Shown: positions 12,150 to 27,786 of the stretch, piece by piece
Layout of the letters: every line of letters starts with the position of its first letter
Numbering within the stretch: the stretch's first letter is position 1
Assembly: GCA_026708015.1 (NCBI GenBank)
Contig: JAPOVT010000043.1
Location: 8,429 to 72,428 of the forward strand
Reading direction: 5' to 3'
Source of the DNA: a bacterium
GTDB lineage: Bacteria > Actinomycetota > Acidimicrobiia > Acidimicrobiales > Bin134
DNA: 64,000 nt
Notes under the pieces: generated by a model
What the model was told of the DNA's origin: nothing
The model's input: the letters and a program-made list of their open reading frames with translations, nothing else
The model's database searches: none
Program-made: the position numbers and the translations under genes

Positions 12150-13151
12150 TCAGAAGCGTAGTTCAGGTGACAAATAAGTGTCCCTGACCCGATCCCCAAA
12201 CTCGGGCCGAGTGAGTGCGTCGGGCCCGTCAGGCACCGCAACGCCCCGCTGAGCACAGTCCTCGGCCAGCGTGGCAATCAGGGTCGCCTCGTCGAGGTCG
12301 TCCAGGTGTTCGTCGTACACCTCGGCCTCGTGGGCGTCGTCAAACACGAAGGCCTTCCACGACAGCGACACCCGCACCTCGTCGAAGGCATGGACCACCG
12401 TCTCATGGCTGGGCTCTTCGATTAGCCACTGTCGATCGGGGGTGAGCGTGATGGTGGCATCGAATCCGTACTTGGCGTAGTCGGTCTCGGTGCCGATGGA
12501 CTCAACCCGATGGGGCATGTAGTCGTTGTCGCCCATTACGCCGTAGTTGTAGGGGGGATCCACCGTCACCAGATCACCGTCCCAACCTTCGGGCCAGTAG
12601 GTGAACTCCCCGCCGACGCCCTCGTAGTACCAGCACACCGCGGTGGCGATCCGCACCCGCCAGCGGTCGAAGCACCCCGAGTGCATCATGCAATTGAGCA
12701 GCCAGGTGGGGTAGTCGTCCCGGCCGACCCCCCGAAAGGAAGGGATATCGGTGTGGCGGGCGTACTGGCCGCTGGGGGCGTTGATATTCACATAGGTGAA
12801 ATAGGGGCGCACCACCTCGGCGCCATAGAGCCGGCGGGCGGCTTCGATGAACCGGGGGTTGTTAACGATGGTGTCGGCCCCCTCCACGGCCTGTTCCTCT
12901 GCTCCCCAGGTGGTGCGAAAAACCGGGGGAATGCGGGGCTCGCCGTCGACCACATCGACGAACGACGGGACGTCACCGGTGCGGGCGCCGGCCCGCAGGG
13001 CAGCCCGGCTCTCCACGAACTCAGCGCCGGCCAGCGTCAGCGGATGGGGCGACTGGCGCTGCAATATGCCGAGCAGCACTTCAGGGTCTTCCAAGGCCTG
13101 TTCCATGATGACCGGAGGCCGGGGCAGCGTCGTCGTGCGCATCCACGACAC
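12150..13151 (-). CDS. Hypothetical protein; possibly a cupin / Fe(II)-oxygenase-like enzyme (HTD ... H)
   Basis: 333-aa ORF heading the SBP/permease operon. Candidate facial triad RHTDIPSF ... MPHRVES. The function is inference only. Confidence 0.6.
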   Translation of the reverse strand: MSWMRTTTLPRPPVIMEQALEDPEVLLGILQRQSPHPLTLAGAEFVESRAALRAGARTGDVPSFVDVVDGEPRIPPVFRTTWGAEEQAVEGADTIVNNPRFIEAARRLYGAEVVRPYFTYVNINAPSGQYARHTDIPSFRGVGRDDYPTWLLNCMMHSGCFDRWRVRIATAVCWYYEGVGGEFTYWPEGWDGDLVTVDPPYNYGVMGDNDYMPHRVESIGTETDYAKYGFDATITLTPDRQWLIEEPSHETVVHAFDEVRVSLSWKAFVFDDAHEAEVYDEHLDDLDEATLIATLAEDCAQRGVAVPDGPDALTRPEFGDRVRDTYLSPELRF

Positions 13152-13222: not shown

Positions 13223-13762
13223 ATGGAAACCACCACCATCTTGTTGCCCACCGGCGAGGTGAACGAGCCCGCCCAGCCGCTGGCCATCCGCAAGGACTCG
13301 CTGGCCGGCGCGACAGTGGGCATCATCGACAACGACATGTGGCGATCCATGGCCATCATGGCCGACGAGCTGTCTCGTCAGCTTGTGGACCGAGCAGGAG
13401 CGGCCGGAGTAGTGGTTCGAGCCAGCGGTCCCATGCACGGCGCCGATCCCGAGCAGTATCAGCAGGAGATGGAGGCCTTCCACGCCGAAGTCGACGCGGT
13501 GATCAGCGGTTTGGGCAATTGAGGCTCTTGCACGGCGTGGTGTATCCACGCCAGCAGCACGCTGGAAGCCATGGGAACACCGGCGGTGGGCCTGGTGACC
13601 GAGCAGTTCCGAGGCCTAGCCGAGGCCACCGCCCGGGGCCTGCGGGTGGACAGCCAGCCGTTGATCGTGTTGCCGTCGGGCTATGACGAGTGGTCTGAGG
13701 AAGACATCAGAGCTGACATCGCTTCCCGCCTCGACGACATCGTGGACGCTCTAGTGGCATGA
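13223..13762 (+). CDS. Candidate UGSC-motif selenoprotein (179 aa, Sec at codon 100 encoded by in-frame TGA 13520-13522)
   Basis: Track ORFs 13223..13522 and 13571..13762 share a frame and are separated by a single TGA. Readthrough gives ..VISGLGN-U-GSCTAWC... A GAGGAG Shine-Dalgarno precedes the ATG, and a hairpin lies 11 nt after the TGA. Confidence 0.7.
13534..13552 (+). promoter_or_regulatory. SECIS-like hairpin GGCGUGG-UGUAU-CCACGCC
   Basis: Perfect 7-bp stem with a 5-nt loop containing G/U. It starts 11 nt downstream of the in-frame UGA. Confidence 0.55.
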
Positions 13763-13802: not shown

Positions 13803-14849
13803 ATGACTCAGCGGGTTGACGTCGACGGCGGCGGCGACGAGGTAGAGACCTATCTGCGAGAGCGGGGCATGACCGACGGTTTGCCGATCGTTCCCCCCAC
13901 CCCCGAGAGGGTTGCTGCTGCGGTCGCCGCCTCCGGGCTGGCGGCCGACCATGTGGTGAGCGACGTTCCCCCGCTGAATGCGCCGGCCACGGTGGAGAAG
14001 ATCGCGGTCAATGCGGTGATGGCCGGCTGCGCCCCTGAGGCGATGCCGGTGCTCATCGCCGCCATCGATGCCTTCTGCGACCCCCAGATGAACGCCCATG
14101 GGGTCCAGACCACCACCAATCCGGTAGGGCCGATGCTGGTGGTGAACGGCCCGATCCGCAACCGGCTGGGCTTCAACTATGGGGCCGGGTGCTTCGGGCC
14201 GGGATCGCACACCAACGCCACCGTGGGGAGGGCTCTTCGGCTGGCCTTGGTGAATATCGGCGGGGCCATCCCCGGTGATGTGGACAAGGCGCCGCTGGGT
14301 TGGCCGGGCAAGGCCACCTCCCTGTGCGTGGCCGAGAACGAGGAAGCCTCCCCCTACCCGCCCTACCACACCGAAGCTGGGTTTGATGCCGAAGACGACG
14401 TGGTGACGGTGCTGGCCGTGAACGGGATGTGGCCCATCACCGACATGCACCACGAGGCCGACCAAGTGCTGCACCATGTGACCAATGGCCTGGCCATAAG
14501 CGGACCGTGCGGCGGTCACGACGCCCCCAACCCCTTCCCGACTGTGCTGGTGATGAGCCCGGTAATCGCCGAGATGGTGGCCAGCCTCATGCCCACCAAA
14601 CAGGAACTGCGGGAGCATTTGTTCGCCGAAGCCCGGGTACCGCTGGACTTCTACCCCCCATATCGGCACCAGCCCACCCGAGACATGCTCGAAGGGTTGG
14701 GCGTGGCTATCGAGAACGACCGGGTGCCCATCGTGCTTGCCCCCGATCACTTCGTGATCCTGGTAGCCGGGGGCGCAGGCGGGCTTCAGTCGGCGGGGCT
14801 GTCGTGCATGCTGGGCATGCCCACCAGTCGGCTGATCGCTGCTGACTAG
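13803..14849 (+). CDS. Conserved hypothetical protein (348 aa, DGLPIVPPT motif); likely co-transcribed with the UGSC gene
   Basis: Long ORF with coding-like composition, 40 nt downstream of the UGSC gene on the same strand. No family name recalled. Confidence 0.75.
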   Translation: MTQRVDVDGGGDEVETYLRERGMTDGLPIVPPTPERVAAAVAASGLAADHVVSDVPPLNAPATVEKIAVNAVMAGCAPEAMPVLIAAIDAFCDPQMNAHGVQTTTNPVGPMLVVNGPIRNRLGFNYGAGCFGPGSHTNATVGRALRLALVNIGGAIPGDVDKAPLGWPGKATSLCVAENEEASPYPPYHTEAGFDAEDDVVTVLAVNGMWPITDMHHEADQVLHHVTNGLAISGPCGGHDAPNPFPTVLVMSPVIAEMVASLMPTKQELREHLFAEARVPLDFYPPYRHQPTRDMLEGLGVAIENDRVPIVLAPDHFVILVAGGAGGLQSAGLSCMLGMPTSRLIAAD

Positions 14850-19840: not shown

Positions 19841-20470
19841 TCAGAATGGCGGTTTCAGGTAGTCAGTATCGTCTCGGACCATGTCGAAGTGGGCCCGATC
19901 AAGATAGTGGTTCCACAGGTTGTGATGTCTGATGCGCAGCGGCCCGCGGTTGTCGCCGGGGCCTAGCCAAGTGGCGGTCTCGATGCGCTTGCCGATCCTG
20001 ACCGCGGCCTCCAGAGCCGGCAGCAAGTCGGTGTCGGCAGAGAACACGACCGCGGCGTCGTAGGCACCTGTTCGGGCCATGTCCACCAGATCGACCGCCA
20101 ACATAACGTCGATGCCCTTCTCGCGGCCCACCCAATGTTCCTTCCCCCGTCTCATCGTCTCGATGTAGTCCATTGGCCGGGAGCACACCTTGACGCCCGC
20201 CGTGCTCACCCAGCGGGCCATCTGGATCTTGGTGGCCCGCTCCAAGTCGGCACCGCTGCGCGTGTCGGGAACAGCCCGGTAGATACGAAGGCCGGCCAGC
20301 ACCCTGCCGGGGTCTTTGCCTCGGCCCAGATCGCAGAGCAGCTCCCCGACTCTCAGCGGGTGGACATGGCCGACTTGCACTGGGGGATCGGCCCCCTCAA
20401 AGAACGAAGCGCGGGCGCGGTGATACACATTCTGGTAGTCGATGAACACAACAACGCGATCGTCAGGCAC
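19841..20470 (-). CDS. NYN domain (LabA-like) protein
   Basis: VVVFIDYQNVYH and GIDVMLAVD...VVFSADTDLLPAL motifs. Confidence 0.85.
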   Translation of the reverse strand: MPDDRVVVFIDYQNVYHRARASFFEGADPPVQVGHVHPLRVGELLCDLGRGKDPGRVLAGLRIYRAVPDTRSGADLERATKIQMARWVSTAGVKVCSRPMDYIETMRRGKEHWVGREKGIDVMLAVDLVDMARTGAYDAAVVFSADTDLLPALEAAVRIGKRIETATWLGPGDNRGPLRIRHHNLWNHYLDRAHFDMVRDDTDYLKPPF

Positions 20471-20682: not shown

Positions 20683-21051
20683 TCACTCGAACTCGGCGGG
20701 TGAGATGTTGCCGAGCGATGAGTGGCGCCGGGTCCGATTGTAGAAGATCTCGATCCAGTCGAAGATCGAGGTTGCCCGTTCGGCGAGACCGACATCGCGC
20801 AGGACTTTCGTTAGCGTCATGTCACTAAGGGGCCTGCCGGCCCTGAGCGGCGACGGGAAGACTATACCGGAGCCGTCGTGAAGGCCTTTGGCCCCTTGCA
20901 GTACTTCGAGGGCGGCATCAGACATCGGCACACGGTGCTCGTTTGCGGTCTTCATTCGATTCGCTGGAATCCGCCATTCGCAGGCATCAAAGTCGATCTC
21001 CTCCCACACAGCGTTGCGGGCCTCGCCTGATCGGGCGGCGGTCGAGGGGAT
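20683..21051 (-). pseudogene. Tyrosine-integrase catalytic-domain fragment fused to an IS3-family transposase C-terminal fragment
   Basis: TAARSGEARNAVWEEIDF...HRVPMSDAALEVL...LSDMTLTKVLRD matches integrase box I onward. It then switches to IFDWIEIFYNRTRRHSSLGNISPAEFE, an IS3 OrfB terminus. The N-terminal ~200 aa of the integrase are absent. Confidence 0.8.
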
Positions 21052-21097: not shown

Positions 21098-21119
21098 AGC
21101 ACCCCGTACGGGATTCGAA
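21098..21119. repeat. Proximal att-like repeat inside the tRNA-Glu 3' end
   Basis: AGCACCCCGTACGGGATTCGAA; pairs with 19712-19733. Confidence 0.7.
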
Positions 21120-21172
21120 CCCGTGTTACCAGATTGAGAATCTGGCGTCCTAGGCCTCTAGACGAACGGGGC
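21100..21172 (-). tRNA. tRNA-Glu (anticodon CUC)
   Basis: Hand-folded: acceptor GCCCCGT/ACGGGGT, anticodon stem CCAGA/TCTGG with loop TTCTCAA, T-arm ACGGG-TTCGAAT-CCCGT. Confidence 0.95.
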
Positions 21173-21222
21173 GGGAACGCTGAAGTGTACCGGCTGCTTT
21201 CGGGATCCGGCGACCCGAATAG

Positions 21223-22290
21223 TCACGGGCGGGCTTGGTAGATGATGTTGGCGTTGGTCTCGGTCACGCGCTCGAAGCTGGAGTAGCCAGCGGCGGTGAA
21301 CACTTCCCGCATGGCGGCTTCGCCGGCTTGAGCACCCATCCCCAACCCGACGGGTTGGGCCAGTGAGCATGGTATTCAAAACACCGCGGAGGCGCCGTAC
21401 GACGTGGCCGCCATCGGGTTCTCAGTCAGATTGCGGAGGTGGCCGTCTAAGGCGAACGGCTCCACCATGAGCACTGAACCGCCCTCGGCAAGCTGGCTGC
21501 GGGCGTGGGCGGCGATGCCCACCGGGTCGCCCATGTCGTGGAGGCAGTCCAAGAAGAAGATCACGTCGTAGGTGCCCTGGTAGCCCTGGGAGTCGGCCAC
21601 CTCGAAGGAGGCGTTGCCCACACCTGCCTCGGCGGCCACCTCCCTGGCCTGGTCGATGGACGGGCCGTGGAAGTCGAACCCCGTGAAGTGGGATTCGGGA
21701 TAGGCCGAGGCCAGGATCTGCACCGAATCTCCGCAGCCGCAGCCCACGTCGGCCGCGGTGGCCCCGGCCCGGAGCTTTTCGTCGATTCCATCGGCGGCCG
21801 GTATCCACTCGTTGGCCAGATACATCTCGTATTGGGGGCGGAAGAAGCGGGCGGTGGAGGTGAACAAAGAGGGATGGTGATCGCCCCACGCCAATCCGCC
21901 GTCGCCTCGGAAGGCGTCGAGGATGTCGTCCATATCGGCGAACATGGCCCGGAACATGCCGATGCCGCCGGCCAAGAACGCGGGGCTCACCTCCCAGGCC
22001 AGCACCGCGGCCGCCTCATCGGTCAACTGGTAGGTGACATCCTCGTCGCCCTGGCCGTCGATCTCCACCAGCTCGACGGCAGCCTGCTGGCGCAGCCACT
22101 CGGTGACCAGGCGGGGATGGCAACCAGTCGCTTCGGCCAAGGCATCGGCAGTCATCGGTCCCGCCCCGGCCATGGCCTGATACAGGCCCAGCTCGTCGCC
22201 GATGTAGACCATGGCCATGGTGGTGGCCCCGGCCATGTGGGTCGCCACCTCGCCGGCCAGCTCGGTTACCCGATCAACGTCGATGTCCAT
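21223..22290 (-). CDS. SAM-dependent methyltransferase (winged-helix plus class I MTase, Rv2258c-like length) with in-frame TGA at 21376-21378 (codon 305 of 355); selenoprotein candidate or pseudogene
   Basis: Track ORF 21376..22290 stops at TGA, but the same frame continues IPCSLAQPVGLGMGAQAGEAAMREVFTAAGYSSFERVTETNANIIYQARP to the stop at 21223. This restores a full-length family-typical C-terminus. Confidence 0.75.
21341..21359 (-). promoter_or_regulatory. SECIS-like hairpin CCCAACCC-GUC-GGGUUGGG
   Basis: 8-bp stem with G/U in the loop. It starts 16 nt downstream of the in-frame UGA on the coding strand. Confidence 0.45.
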
Positions 22291-22344
22291 GTCAGTTCCT
22301 TCTCGGTGATGTACCGGCTGGAACCCTAGTGGTGTCTACGTGGC

Positions 22345-23205
22345 CTAGCGGCGAGTGGTGCGGCGCTTCCACCCGGCGGCGGCCAGGTTGCCGCCGTCCA
22401 CATGGATGGTGGAGCCGGTCACGAACCGGGAAAGATCCCCGGCCAGATACACGATCGCCGCGGCGCAGTCGTGAACCGAGCCGCCCTCCAACCACGGTTG
22501 AGGGGCCAGCTGCGATCGCTCGTCCGTGCTCTCGTCGCCGAGCATCCTCTCGCCCTCGGTGGGGATCACGTCGGGGGCGATGCAGTTGACCCGGATGCCC
22601 GCCGGCGCCAGCTCCAGCGACAGGCTCATGGCCAAATTGGCCTGGGCCGCCTTCATCGCCGAATAGATGGAGAAGCCGGGACCGGCCCGATGGGCCTCGA
22701 TGGAGGTGACGTTGATGATCGACCCCCCTTCGCTCATCAGCGGAATGCATCCCCGGATGAAACCGGTGACCTGGGTGAAGTTCTCGGCAATGAGCGCGGC
22801 CTCACCCTTGAGGTTGATGTCGGCAAACGGGGAGCTGAATGTGCCGCCGGCGTTGTTCACCAGCACGTCCACCCGCCCACAGGCTTCTCCCACCTCGGCC
22901 AGCCAGGCGTCTCGGGGCTCGGGGTGACGCACGTCGAACAGCCCGGTCAGGCAGCGGCGGCCCAGTGCCTCTACCGCGGCGGCAGTGCGGGCCATATCGT
23001 CGGCCTCCCGGTCGCAGATGGCCAGATCGGCGCCGAACCGGGCCAGGGCCACTGCGGTGGCCGCGCCGATCCCCCGGGCACCGCCGGTGACGATGGCCAC
23101 TTTGTCGGTGAGCAGCACACTGGATGGGTCGAGGATGTTGTCTTCGCTCCAAATTGGGTCTTTGTCGCTCTTGAGACCGCCCAACGTCCACTCCCAATCA
23201 GTCAT
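22345..23205 (-). CDS. SDR family oxidoreductase
   Basis: Track ORF 22345..23400 trimmed to the ATG at 23205 (ATGA overlap with the upstream stop). TGGARGIG and YSAMK motifs. Confidence 0.85.
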   Translation of the reverse strand: MTDWEWTLGGLKSDKDPIWSEDNILDPSSVLLTDKVAIVTGGARGIGAATAVALARFGADLAICDREADDMARTAAAVEALGRRCLTGLFDVRHPEPRDAWLAEVGEACGRVDVLVNNAGGTFSSPFADINLKGEAALIAENFTQVTGFIRGCIPLMSEGGSIINVTSIEAHRAGPGFSIYSAMKAAQANLAMSLSLELAPAGIRVNCIAPDVIPTEGERMLGDESTDERSQLAPQPWLEGGSVHDCAAAIVYLAGDLSRFVTGSTIHVDGGNLAAAGWKRRTTRR

Positions 23206-23927
23206 ACGCCTACTCCCACAGCAGAGCCGATCCCGAAAGTGATGGCCGCTGCGGCGGCAACAAAGGCAAGCTGACGAAGCGAGCCCCGCACAATCGAGCG
23301 GCCGGTGGCCAGCGCCAACGCACCGCCAATCATTACGGCGCCCACCCCTCCGAGGATGATCGATGCCACGATGGCCCCATTGCCACCACCGAAGAACCAC
23401 GGCAACAACGGCAACATTGCACCCAAGGCGAAGGAAATGAACGAAGACATGGCGGCAAACACCGGATTGCCCAGCTCGTTGGGATCAATTCCCATCTCCT
23501 CTCGGGCGTGGACCTCCAAGGCCTTCTCAGGGTCGTCCATGATGTTGGCGGCCATCTCCCGAGCTATGTCCTGGTCTATTCCCCGCGACTCGTAGATCTC
23601 GGCCAGCTCCTCCACCTCGTGCTCCGGATTGCGGGCGTGCTCTCGCCGCTCCATGTCCAACTCGCGCTCCAACAGCTCTCGCTGAGCCTGCATCGACAAG
23701 TATTCGCCCGCAGCCATAGAAACCGCACCGGCGATGAGCCCGGCGATCCCCACCAGCCTCACCAGTCCCTGCCCCGAAGTGCCTCCGGCCACACCCAAGA
23801 TGATCGCCATATTGGACACCAGGCCGTCGCTCGCCCCGAACACCGCCGCCCGGTACCCGCCCCGGGCCACATTGCGGTGATGGCCCTCACCGAGATGCCC
23901 CGAGCCGCTCCTCTTCCTTGCGAACAC
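23202..23927 (-). CDS. VIT1/CCC1 family (vacuolar iron transporter-like) membrane protein
   Basis: VFGASDGLVSNMAIILGVAGG motif, central ferritin-like helical segment and C-terminal TM helices. Confidence 0.85.
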   Translation of the reverse strand: MFARKRSGSGHLGEGHHRNVARGGYRAAVFGASDGLVSNMAIILGVAGGTSGQGLVRLVGIAGLIAGAVSMAAGEYLSMQAQRELLERELDMERREHARNPEHEVEELAEIYESRGIDQDIAREMAANIMDDPEKALEVHAREEMGIDPNELGNPVFAAMSSFISFALGAMLPLLPWFFGGGNGAIVASIILGGVGAVMIGGALALATGRSIVRGSLRQLAFVAAAAAITFGIGSAVGVGV

Positions 23928-24670: not shown

Positions 24671-25858
24671 TCAGACCCCATCGCGTGGCGCCAGCACGAT
24701 CTGCTCCTCATCATCGGCTCTCACCACCCAATTGTCGCCCCGGCGGAAGACTTCGGCGCCGGGTGCGCTCAGGTCGTCACCATCTCGAACCCAGCTCACC
24801 GCCTGGCTCATGGCCACTTCAACCAGCCCGGCACGACCGGCGGCTGTGGCCTCCGCCGCAGCACGACAGGCCGCCAACCCAGCCACCGGATCGGCGGCCG
24901 CGTCGCCAACGAACCACGGCAGTCCGCCGTCCGGGTCTGACAGCCACAGGCCCCCGCTCACTGCGGCGTCGTCACCAAATCCGGCCCGCCCGTCGCCGTG
25001 CCCGGAGATCGAAACCCAAACCAGCCCACAACTCTGGGCCACCTCCAATCGGTCGATACCCCAATTGACCCACACCCGGGGCCGCAGGCCGTCCACGACG
25101 ACTGCCGATTCCCGGCACAGATCCAGAAATTGGCGGTGACCGTCCTCGGATCCCAGGTCGATAACCGTGTCCTGCTTGCCCCGGTTCAATCGCTCATAGA
25201 ACGCGGGAGAGCCGTACCGCGCCCCGTCGGGACGGTTTGGCGCCTCTATCTTCAGCACCTTGAATCCGATGCCGCCCAGCAGCGACGCGCACAGCGGGCC
25301 AGCCCACAGCGAGCTCACGTCCAGCACCAGATTGCGGCCTGATCCCGCCGGTCCGGCGTCGGTGAGCGAACAGGGCTCGGCAGGCGGCAAGGGACGGACT
25401 GCTTCCCCCACCGCCAAGCCCAGCCATTCGGCCCGCTCGATCAGCTCAACCACCGGCTTGTCCCGCACCCCTGCGGCCACTTCGGCCCACACGTCGTCCC
25501 CGGCCAGATCACCGATCTCCAGCCAAGCGGGAACCGCTTCGGTGTCGGTGCTGCGGGCCAGCGACACCGCCAACACGCCGTCGGCCGCCGCCACCATGCG
25601 GCACGCTCCTCCCACCGACACGGCGCCTCTTCGACTACGGCCCACAAGTGCCGCCCGCTCCCCAAGAAAGCCGGCGGCATTGGTCCTCAGTGCCTGTCCG
25701 CACAGCTTGGAGATGTCGCTCACCACATTGTCGAGCCGCTCCAGCCAGCGTCCGGATGCCAGCGCCGGAGGCCCGTGCTCCGGGCCGCTCAGCCCCATGA
25801 GCCCGGACTCGGCCCAAACCAAAGCCGGATGGCGCCCGGTCGAGGGTGACGACTCCAT
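24671..25858 (-). CDS. Family III CoA-transferase (CaiB/BaiF-like) with unusual domain order
   Basis: The canonical N-terminal motif VLDVSSLWAGPLC...KVLKIEAPNRPDGAR lies at ~aa 178-215. The normally C-terminal segment GGACRMVAAADGVLAVSL lies at ~aa 90-110. Confidence 0.8.
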   Translation of the reverse strand: MESSPSTGRHPALVWAESGLMGLSGPEHGPPALASGRWLERLDNVVSDISKLCGQALRTNAAGFLGERAALVGRSRRGAVSVGGACRMVAAADGVLAVSLARSTDTEAVPAWLEIGDLAGDDVWAEVAAGVRDKPVVELIERAEWLGLAVGEAVRPLPPAEPCSLTDAGPAGSGRNLVLDVSSLWAGPLCASLLGGIGFKVLKIEAPNRPDGARYGSPAFYERLNRGKQDTVIDLGSEDGHRQFLDLCRESAVVVDGLRPRVWVNWGIDRLEVAQSCGLVWVSISGHGDGRAGFGDDAAVSGGLWLSDPDGGLPWFVGDAAADPVAGLAACRAAAEATAAGRAGLVEVAMSQAVSWVRDGDDLSAPGAEVFRRGDNWVVRADDEEQIVLAPRDGV

Positions 25859-26274: not shown

Positions 26275-27786
26275 ATGAACCTGATGATGCTGCTGGAGAT
26301 GGCCTCCAGCGGTTTCGGCGACCGCACCGCGGTTGGATCCCAGGGGCAGGGGCTTACCTACGAGCAGCTGTTCCAGCGGTCCGGCGCCGCCGCAACCCAC
26401 TTCAGGGAGGCGGGCATCGACCGGGTCAGCCTGGTGGATGTCAGCAGCGAGGCTCTGCCCATAGCGCTCTTCGGCTCGGCTTGGGCCGGAGTGCCGTTCG
26501 TTCCCCTCAACTACCGGCTGACGGTGCCCGAGCTGCGCCATTTGGCCGCCGAAGTAGCTCCCTCGGTCACGGTGTGCAATGACGACGCCCTGTTGGCCAT
26601 CGGCGACCTTGACGGCGTGCGAGCGGTTGTGCGGCCCGATTTCCTGTCCCAATGGGCCGAAGGCAGCGCCCCTGACAGCGACTGGAACGTCGATCCGGAC
26701 GAAATCGCCATCCTCCTCTACACCAGCGGCACCACCGGAGCGCCCAAGGCCGCGGTACTGCGTCACAAGCACTTGGTGTCGTACATCATCGGCTCGGTGG
26801 AGTTCATGGGGGCGTCCGAAGACGAGGCCACCCTGGTGTCGGTACCCCCCTATCACGTGGCCGGCATGGCCGCGATCTTGAGCTCGGTGTACGCCGGGCG
26901 CCGCATCGTGCAACTTCCCAACTTCGACGCCGCCGACTGGGTGAACCTGGTCCGTGCCGAGGGTGTCACCCATGCCATGGTGGTGCCCACCATGCTGGCC
27001 CGCATCGTGGACCACTTGGAGGACGTCGGAGGCGGGCTCCCCTCGCTGCGGGCCTTGTCGTATGGCGGCGGCAAGATGCCCGCTCCGGTCATCGCCCGAG
27101 CACTGGAGTTGCTGCCCGAGACCAACTTCGTGAACGCCTACGGCCTCACCGAGACCAGCTCCACGGTGGCCGTGCTCGGCCCCGATGAGCACCGCGAAGC
27201 CCACCGCTCCGACGATCCCGCCGTGCGGGCCAGGCTGGGCTCGGCGGGCCGACCGCTGCCCGCCATCGAGGTGGACATCCGCGACGACGAGGGCGAACCG
27301 GTTCCCACCGGCACCTCCGGCGAGATCTGGGTACGAGGCGAGCAGGTTTCAGGCGAATACCTGGGGCGGAACACCCGGGTCACCCCCGACGGCTGGTTCC
27401 CCACCAACGACGGCGGCTCGCTCGATGACGACGGCTACCTGTTCGTGGAAGGCCGCATCGACGACATCATCGTGAGGGGCGGGGAGAACATCTCCCCCGG
27501 CGAGATCGAAGACGTGCTGTTGAGCCACCACTCGGTGGCCGACGCCGCCGCGGTCGGCGTGCCCGACGAGCAGTGGGGCGAGGCGGTGGCCGCGGTGGTG
27601 GTGCCCGCCAAAGGGCAAACGGTGGACATCGCCGAACTCCAGGAGTTCGTGAAGACTCAGATGAGGTCGTCACGCACCCCGGACCGCATCGAGGTGCGCG
27701 ACGAGCTGCCCTACAACGAGACCGGCAAGCTCTTGCGCCGGATCCTAAGAGATGAGCTCGCCAGTTCAAACGACAGGTCTGGCTGA
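26275..27786 (+). CDS. AMP-dependent acyl-CoA synthetase/ligase
   Basis: LLYTSGTTGAPKAAVL AMP-binding motif, YGLTET and GWFPTNDGG motifs. Confidence 0.9.
   Translation: MNLMMLLEMASSGFGDRTAVGSQGQGLTYEQLFQRSGAAATHFREAGIDRVSLVDVSSEALPIALFGSAWAGVPFVPLNYRLTVPELRHLAAEVAPSVTVCNDDALLAIGDLDGVRAVVRPDFLSQWAEGSAPDSDWNVDPDEIAILLYTSGTTGAPKAAVLRHKHLVSYIIGSVEFMGASEDEATLVSVPPYHVAGMAAILSSVYAGRRIVQLPNFDAADWVNLVRAEGVTHAMVVPTMLARIVDHLEDVGGGLPSLRALSYGGGKMPAPVIARALELLPETNFVNAYGLTETSSTVAVLGPDEHREAHRSDDPAVRARLGSAGRPLPAIEVDIRDDEGEPVPTGTSGEIWVRGEQVSGEYLGRNTRVTPDGWFPTNDGGSLDDDGYLFVEGRIDDIIVRGGENISPGEIEDVLLSHHSVADAAAVGVPDEQWGEAVAAVVVPAKGQTVDIAELQEFVKTQMRSSRTPDRIEVRDELPYNETGKLLRRILRDELASSNDRSG

Follow-up and report, generated by a model that had tools for sequence, protein, structure and literature searches.

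A methyltransferase gene with an in-frame UGA codon

We describe here a gene on the minus strand of a 64,000-nucleotide stretch of contig JAPOVT010000043.1 (assembly GCA_026708015.1, an Acidimicrobiia bacterium of lineage Bin134), the whole of which we refer to as the window. The open reading frame (ORF) 22290..21376 encodes 304 amino acids, ends ...NPMAATSYGASAVF (...SYGASAVF) and meets a TGA at 21378-21376, and the same frame then runs on unbroken as IPCSLAQPVGLGMGAQAGEAAMREVFTAAGYSSFERVTETNANIIYQARP (which opens IPCSLAQPVGLGMGAQ and closes NANIIYQARP) up to a second TGA at 21225-21223, giving a full reading frame of 304+1+50 = 355 codons. An earlier interpretation made from the letters alone (the sequence-only reading) had described this stop, the same-frame extension to 21223 and the length of 355 codons, and the sequence agrees; it had also regarded the 73-aa ORF at 21158..21379 as out-of-frame, and a check of the frames places that ORF in a different frame from the methyltransferase. 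As argued below, the gene most probably encodes a selenoprotein in which the first UGA is read as selenocysteine (Sec), with a downstream stem-loop as the candidate selenocysteine insertion sequence (SECIS; bSECIS for the bacterial type). The features at the locus, each with its evidence, are the following.

21223..22290, minus strand: probable full-length selenoprotein gene, 355 codons plus stop (translation, Pfam, full-length alignment to Cys homologues, fold of the Cys form)
21376..21378, minus strand: in-frame UGA, putative Sec codon, residue 305 (alignment of the Cys column; TGA in 11 orthologues)
21379..21381, minus strand: UUU (Phe), a rare codon directly 5' of the UGA that tracks the Sec state and may have a functional meaning
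21341..21359, minus strand: SECIS-like upper hairpin CCCAACCC-GUC-GGGUUGGG (fold, pair conservation, bSECIS constraints)
21335..21373, minus strand: possible extended SECIS, with a lower 5-bp helix around the upper hairpin (RNAalifold consensus)
21223..21375, minus strand: post-UGA tail, 50 codons plus the true stop (dN/dS, Fisher tests, secondary structure of an AlphaFold2 model)
22297..22304, minus strand: Shine-Dalgarno-like GAGAAGGA, 6 nt upstream of the ATG at 22290 (direct sequence reading)

With Cys substituted at the stop, the protein matches the Pfam family HTH_65 (the Rv2258c-like winged helix-turn-helix, HTH) at 38.3 bits against a cut-off of 24.1, and Methyltransf_31, Methyltransf_25 and Methyltransf_12 at 57.6, 45.1 and 45.3 bits. 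The loop motif for S-adenosylmethionine (SAM), DVGCGCGD, is present, and the protein has the architecture of PF21320, namely HTH_65 followed by a class I methyltransferase domain. The predicted tryptic peptide across the UGA is NLTENPMAATSYGASAVF-U-IPCSLAQPVGLGMGAQAGEAAMR.

We note that TGA is the ordinary stop of 66% of the 56 predicted genes in the window; as the main ordinary stop codon here, UGA is not reassigned in this organism. At 66% G+C an open frame of 50 codons and a G+C-rich hairpin are unremarkable in themselves. Judged from the alignments, homology is what goes beyond chance: along its entire length the tail matches the C-termini of full-length homologues, and the position of the UGA is that of an invariant Cys. 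Further in-frame TGA codons considered in the window (e.g., at 12150 and 53627) were rejected as just neighboring genes that share a frame.

Conservation of the UGA, its context and the downstream tail

When 5.8 billion protein clusters were searched at the protein level, full-length homologues proved to be 351-356 aa long, all with Cys at the UGA column, within the motif F/I/V-C-T-P-x-S-L-x-Q, and eight separate 90%-identity clusters, 81-95% identical to the window protein, stop exactly at ...SAVF. A DNA comparison of 176 related loci (from genomes, metagenomes and assemblies) gives the same column: Cys, encoded by TGC or TGT, occupies it in 162 of 162 distinct Cys-form loci (6 close and 156 distant, from many phyla), as it does in Rv2258c of Mycobacterium tuberculosis. 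The sequence-only reading had suggested that the UGA lies opposite a conserved Cys and had proposed an alignment at codon 305 as a check; the aligned residue is indeed this invariant Cys, also in Rv2258c, and the motif it had given for the region is approximately right.

Another check it had proposed, a search for further orthologues with TGA, was also productive. TGA occupies the column in 10 distinct related loci, all from one Acidimicrobiia clade, so that with the window there are 11 such forms (the window, L002, L004/L015, L005-8, L009/10, L011, L012, L013, L174, L175 and L176), which for brevity we call the Sec forms. Their pairwise nucleotide identity is 80-92% (eight aligned as codons). 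The sequences stem from separate assemblies (ENA, JGI, Logan and GenBank), some of them complete (closed) chromosomes of metagenome-assembled genomes (MAGs). The complete genomes include OZ242355.1, NZ_OZ244793.1 and ERZ25068043 ctg12670, and this recurrence in independent assemblies excludes a sequencing error. Genomes with the Cys form include OZ246892.1, MPNQ01 (bin134) and JAJEIJ01. The named relatives are Candidatus Poriferisocius (Acidimicrobiales) and the Sva0996 marine group from the sponge Aplysina aerophoba. RefSeq names the Candidatus Poriferisocius orthologue a 311-aa "methyltransferase domain-containing protein", i.e., a product cut at the UGA. A scan of JGI metagenomes returned distant Cys forms only (at most 55% identity) and no further Sec forms.

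Sec forms account for the two deepest branches, L002 and L004, in a neighbor-joining tree of the clade, and Cys forms appear at no fewer than three points: L172, the group L173/L014/L016/L171, and L066, which is nested among Sec forms. Such intermingling is what Sec/Cys exchange usually produces, and it suggests Sec as the ancestral state of the clade, with several reversions to Cys.

The tail itself evolves as protein. Among eight Sec forms aligned as codons, its 50 codons show a proportion of synonymous differences (pS) of 0.446, a proportion of nonsynonymous differences (pN) of 0.044 and a ratio of nonsynonymous to synonymous rates (dN/dS) of 0.098, while the 304 codons upstream of the UGA are looser at 0.177. 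Synonymous changes in the tail exceed nonsynonymous ones with Fisher p values of 1e-6 to 1e-12 in the five pairs tested, the codons right after the UGA (x-P-C/S-S-L/M-A-Q-P-V-G) vary mostly synonymously, and the frame is kept in 11 of 11 TGA genes, with no frameshifts and no extra stops.

The immediate context of the UGA also follows the state of the column. The codon just 5' of the column reads UUU in each of the 11 Sec forms and UUC in each of the six close Cys forms; in the rest of these genes 91% of Phe codons are UUC (232 vs 23), and genome-wide UUU makes up 13% of Phe codons. On the 3' side, the Sec forms have AUA, AUU, GUN or ACU (Ile, Val or Thr), whereas the Cys forms always have ACC, the encoded Thr being nearly invariant across the family. 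A second UGA-containing gene in the window, a member of the UGSC family discussed below, has the context AAU-UGA-GGC in 5 of 5 loci, AAU being 17% of Asn codons. U at -1 and a purine at +1 may represent a lineage-specific context requirement for Sec decoding; we found no statement of such a -1/+1 rule in the literature read.

With regard to the hairpin, the published bSECIS model asks for 3-9 nt in the apical loop and 4-16 bp in the upper stem, a distance of 16-37 nt between UGA and loop, a G as the first or second loop nucleotide, as a rule followed by G or U, and a minimum free energy of -7.5 kcal/mol or below (PMC13188914). The sequence-only reading had placed a hairpin 16 nt after the UGA, at 21359-21341, and had recommended a bSECIS search; computed, it is a perfect 8-bp fold of -13.0 kcal/mol with a 16-nt spacer, 24 nt from the UGA to the apical loop and a loop that opens G-U, and it fits the constraints of the model. 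So do the hairpins of all 11 Sec forms, with 23-24 nt from UGA to loop, loops of 3-4 nt and stems of 7-8 bp. Six have the perfect stem CCCARCCC-GUS-GGGYUGGG (-13.0 to -15.4 kcal/mol), and five have CCCAGCC-GGUC-GG-N-CUGGG or its UUGGG variant (5+2 bp with a one-nt bulge, -9.6 kcal/mol). These two stem variants (the 8-bp form with a GUS triloop and the 5+2 bp form with a GGUC loop) interconvert by synonymous Pro, Gly, Gln and Leu codon changes only (columns 20-38 of alignment A2).

The seven pairs of the consensus are kept in 77 of 77 cells across the 11 Sec forms, and one of them covaries (G-C in 6, A-U in 4, G-U in 1). RNAalifold further pairs columns 6-10 with 40-44 (91% of cells paired, one compensatory change), a possible lower 5-bp helix that might extend the SECIS. 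Stability separates the two states without overlap, at -9.6 to -15.4 kcal/mol in the Sec forms vs -6.8 to -8.1 in the six close Cys forms, and the exact codon combinations for the two Sec-type stems, which have a joint prior of about 12%, are seen in 11 of 11 Sec forms and 1 of 6 Cys forms. In the same region a perfect hairpin of -10.9 kcal/mol or below occurs in about 3% of distant Cys homologues. The clade encodes A-Q-P-V-G-L-G where distant homologues have S-Q-E-V-G-L-G, and the Ser-to-Ala and Glu-to-Pro replacements lengthen the stem; the SECIS of this lineage appears, from the sequences, to have arisen on coding sequence with a palindrome already in place (Gln CAR ... Leu YUG-Gly GG). Like the consensus bSECIS, whose prototype is that of E. 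coli fdhF, the window hairpin is a stem-loop in the coding region just 3' of the UGA; unlike it, the clade mixes two stem variants and the structure is largely forced by the peptide. At gathering thresholds Rfam finds three tRNAs only in the window, and the hairpin is without a match.

Selenocysteine decoding and the competing explanations

A second source of evidence for Sec use lies 7.7 kb from the methyltransferase, in the same window.

13223..13762, plus strand: UGSC-family selenoprotein gene, 179 residues, motif GLGN-U-GSC, with its UGA at 13520-13522 (translation, NF041046)

The encoded protein matches NCBIfam NF041046 (UGSC_fam) across the whole length of the model (E 1e-23), with a score of 83.9 bits that stays below the 125-bit cut-off, and Pfam UGSC matches both halves of the protein in a relative. 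Its hairpin, GGCGUGG-UGUAU-CCACGCC at 13534-13552, has 7 bp, starts 11 nt after the UGA and folds at -18.6 kcal/mol, and four related loci retain the UGA (L066, L012, L004 and L015, the last two being the same genome). The sequence-only reading counted the methyltransferase UGA as the second in-frame one, and the UGSC codon is probably its first. The UGSC family (NF041046, PF24696) is an unrelated small protein and serves here only as evidence of Sec use, but the two genes share a syntax in which a rare codon ending in U precedes the UGA, a purine follows it and a hairpin comes about 11-16 nt further on. UGSC has been suggested to have a thioredoxin-like fold and is among the most abundant selenoprotein families in marine metagenomes (PMC2398784). 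The presence of such a gene in the same window suggests that the organism decodes Sec. As side observations, L066 has a Cys methyltransferase yet retains its UGA-containing UGSC gene, and a 348-aa gene at 13803-14849 adjoins the UGSC gene, also in relatives, its L004 orthologue having no recorded Pfam match.

Published surveys bear on the lineage more widely. SelA and SelB co-occur in most bins of sponge symbionts and are enriched among them, and the Acidimicrobiia bin76 has SelA, SelB and SelD, whereas bin134 (Sva0996), the source of L016 and the only clade member tabulated, is scored SelD 1, SelA 0 and SelB 0 (Slaby et al. 2017, PMC5649159, including Table S4). L016 carries the Cys (TGC) form, which is consistent with the SelA and SelB scores of bin134, with the caveat that the MAG is 90% complete; in this locus (MPNQ01000017.1) a change from Sec to Cys may have gone alongside loss of the Sec machinery. 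In Actinomarina, marine Acidimicrobiia, selA, selB, selC and selD are reported to be universal (bioRxiv 10.64898/2026.04.03.716425).

Taken together, we consider the gene a genuine selenoprotein gene whose UGA is read as Sec, a reading to which, from sequence comparisons, we assign a probability of roughly 0.87. In mechanistic terms, a single intact gene would give an mRNA with UGA at codon 305, and the stem-loop behind a 16-nt spacer, with its G+C-rich stem of 7-8 bp and its loop starting G-U or G-G-U, would act as a bacterial SECIS. It would recruit SelB-GTP-Sec-tRNA(Sec), UGA would be decoded as Sec, and translation would then run for 50 more codons to yield a 355-residue selenoprotein, in which Sec would take the place of the family-invariant Cys on the helix after strand 5. 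We infer Sec as the inserted residue, binding of SelB by the hairpin and a catalytic role for residue 305 from these comparisons.

Several points weigh against this interpretation. Searches by tblastn with E. coli SelA, SelB and SelD over the 64-kb window and the 176 related loci found no selA, selB or selD, and ARAGORN found no tRNA-Sec in the window or the clade loci. The remaining points concern the hairpin. Its covariation is limited essentially to one upper-stem pair, among related sequences, and the six close Cys forms hold the same seven pairs. Against dinucleotide shuffles its z-score is -1.2 over 45 nt and -2.3 for the 19-nt core, and when IPCSLAQPVGLGMGAQAGE is recoded synonymously with the codon usage of the window, 58% of recodings give a bSECIS-like hairpin of -10.9 kcal/mol or below. 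The bSECIS constraints are themselves of low specificity, being passed by 21% of distant Cys homologues and by most synonymous recodings. As the hairpin is largely dictated by the conserved peptide AQPVGLG, it is weak as stand-alone evidence and not independent of the protein, and hairpin energy was dropped as a stand-alone argument after the shuffle and recoding controls.

Of the other ways to account for the TGA, the one that the sequence-only reading had set beside a Sec-containing methyltransferase was a recent nonsense pseudogene, in which a TGC-to-TGA change truncated the protein at 304 and left the tail as decaying non-coding DNA. One base change from the TGC of close relatives would suffice, and gene callers and RefSeq do give products of 304-311 aa, but the same TGA is found in 11 distinct orthologues about 0.45 apart in pS, whose 80-92% nucleotide identity shows that they are not one recent clone, and Sec forms are among the deepest branches of the clade. 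As the tail is under strong purifying selection (dN/dS about 0.10, no indels or stops) and the TGA is kept in 11 orthologues, a pseudogene is refuted with very little room for doubt; the Sec-containing methyltransferase is supported by the Cys column, the TGA orthologues, the bSECIS-fitting hairpin and the UGSC gene. Alternatively, the gene might be split, a 304-aa product assembling non-covalently with a separately initiated C-terminal peptide of about 40 aa. An in-frame 40-aa ORF does begin at TTG 21345, and gene callers list a 38-aa ORF in relatives. The TTG, however, has no preceding Shine-Dalgarno sequence, all other family members are single chains with Cys exactly at the junction, and the 10-11 codons between UGA and TTG are conserved as protein (xPCSLAQPVG) with many synonymous changes; since these first post-UGA codons change mostly synonymously, a separately initiated peptide is disfavored, and we reject it as highly improbable.

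The UGA might be read through independently of Sec, either because a near-cognate tRNA (Trp, Cys or Arg) suppresses it or because release factor 2 terminates weakly at UUU-UGA-R; the conserved, unusual UUU suggests selection on the context, and no genes of the Sec machinery turned up in the window or the related loci. On the other hand, an invariant Cys column is the signature of Sec/Cys exchange and not of leaky termination, the UGSC gene of the window carries UGA at the Sec position that defines its family, every UGA form has a stronger hairpin than the Cys forms, and readthrough of low efficiency would hardly sustain a conserved enzyme over such divergence, so that we hold this explanation to be unlikely. 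A programmed +1 frameshift at U-UUU-GA, of the kind known from prfB, with tRNA-Phe slipping on four U, could draw on the sequence GUG-UUU-UGA, in which four U in a row are followed by the stop, and on the strict retention of U at -1 in the UGA forms. The C-terminal homology and the purifying selection lie in the 0 frame, however, and with a conserved tail in that frame a prfB-type shift is excluded for practical purposes.

Fold, residue 305 and genomic surroundings

For the three-dimensional structure we used an AlphaFold2 (AF2) model of the natural Cys form P0001, which is 91% identical to the window protein (mean predicted local distance difference test score, pLDDT, 91.6). The nearest solved homologues of the window protein are TnmJ of tiancimycin biosynthesis (8G5S; E 4e-41) and Rv2258c (5F8C; E 2e-39 by phmmer), and the P0001 model shares their fold, with Foldseek template modeling (TM) scores of 0.86-0.89 against 8G5S and 5F8C/5F8E/5F8F (0.87 for TnmJ); the next-best structural matches of the model are COMT-type small-molecule methyltransferases. 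Residue 305 lies in helix 294-310, just past strand 5, and the post-UGA tail makes up the end of that helix, a further helix (323-333) and the two final strands, 338-344 and 348-354. A 304-residue product would probably not fold, because the tail supplies a helix and the last two beta-strands.

Rv2258c (PF21320) has the same two-domain architecture and fold at about 29% identity, with Cys and not Sec at the UGA column. We know of no substrate for the Rv2258c-like family. TnmJ is cited as performing SAM-requiring, non-methylating chemistry of the oxygenase type (bioRxiv 10.1101/2024.05.03.592356), and on this basis redox chemistry is plausible for a methyltransferase fold. Unlike the window protein, however, TnmJ has Ser at the Sec/Cys column, so a role for Cys or Sec is not transferable from it.

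The family-invariant residues include H138-H139, D248-C249-L250-H251-D252, E277 and C305. In COMT-type methyltransferases the catalytic His belongs to the L-H-D motif that follows strand 4, and in related small-molecule methyltransferases the helix after strand 5 lines the substrate and metal site. Sec almost always substitutes a catalytic, redox-active or metal-binding Cys. In SgvM, a structurally related alpha-keto-acid C-methyltransferase, zinc is ligated by H244 and H296 (PMC10502145), a spacing of 52 residues; in the window protein H251 (of LHD) and U305 are 54 apart. By analogy, Sec305 would most likely be an active-site nucleophile, a redox center or a metal ligand. This leads us to speculate, with low confidence, that the Rv2258c family may comprise Cys/Sec-dependent metallo- or redox enzymes on a methyltransferase scaffold and not plain methyltransferases, and that its Sec branch may combine this with a SECIS derived from an already palindromic segment and a required U 5' of the UGA. 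Cys305 (the numbering differs in Rv2258c) is marked as a key residue of a widespread uncharacterized family, one that includes an M. tuberculosis protein, and as a target for mutagenesis.

Sec in a methyltransferase has precedent, as selenoproteins with a SAM-methyltransferase fold or name that are decoded through bacterial SECIS elements exist (PMC13188914). The window protein belongs to none of the known Sec-methyltransferases compared. It scores 17.4 bits against the 460-bit cut-off of NF047649 (MTase/UXPK-star), by the SAM-binding loop only; it has no match to the model of ArsM (NF008823; signature UxxG) at E <= 0.01; and it differs from MduS, which has two Sec and a CxxU motif, in its single Sec within a U-x-P-C/S motif and its N-terminal winged HTH, MduS being set apart by listed motif and Sec count only. 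The methyltransferase family is not in the table of prokaryotic selenoproteins of a 2026 review (PMC13188914), and no NCBIfam selenoprotein model matches above its cut-off; earlier detection elsewhere is possible. It is apparently an unlisted selenoprotein family that uses the standard mechanism and is restricted to sponge-associated Acidimicrobiia.

For annotation, it would add a selenoprotein family whose members are cut at 304-311 residues by current pipelines, RefSeq included. For the study of evolution, the clade's natural pairs of Sec and Cys forms, 90-94% identical and with UGA context and hairpin stability changing to match, represent a compact system for Sec gain and loss.

The gene order short-chain dehydrogenase (SDR), methyltransferase, tRNA-Glu is kept in the clade. 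The short-chain dehydrogenase lies about 50 nt upstream of the methyltransferase on the same strand and is possibly co-transcribed with it. It belongs to an upstream syntenic block present in all clade loci (22345-23205, minus; about 23202-23927, minus; 24671-25858, minus; 26275-27786, plus), whose genes, named from Pfam marks on syntenic loci, are the short-chain dehydrogenase, a VIT1-family iron transporter, a family III CoA-transferase and an AMP-dependent ligase; the association with the methyltransferase is one of gene order. Clustering across 102 distant loci gave no family-wide neighbor gene, a Pseudomonas-specific context alone being seen, and as no partner is conserved across the wider family the neighborhood yields no functional clue.

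On the downstream side, a tRNA-Glu(CUC) (21099-21172 of the window, minus strand) follows the methyltransferase after about 50 nt in nearly all clade loci. Beyond it a 108-aa ORF (20683-21009, minus) looks, from its sequence, like a fusion of integrase and transposase remnants, and is followed by an unannotated 209-aa ORF (19841-20470, minus). Intact phage-type integrases stand at the same place in L172 (4427-5527) and L173 (4412-5506). The tRNA-Glu appears to be an integration hotspot, with downstream gene content that differs among genomes.

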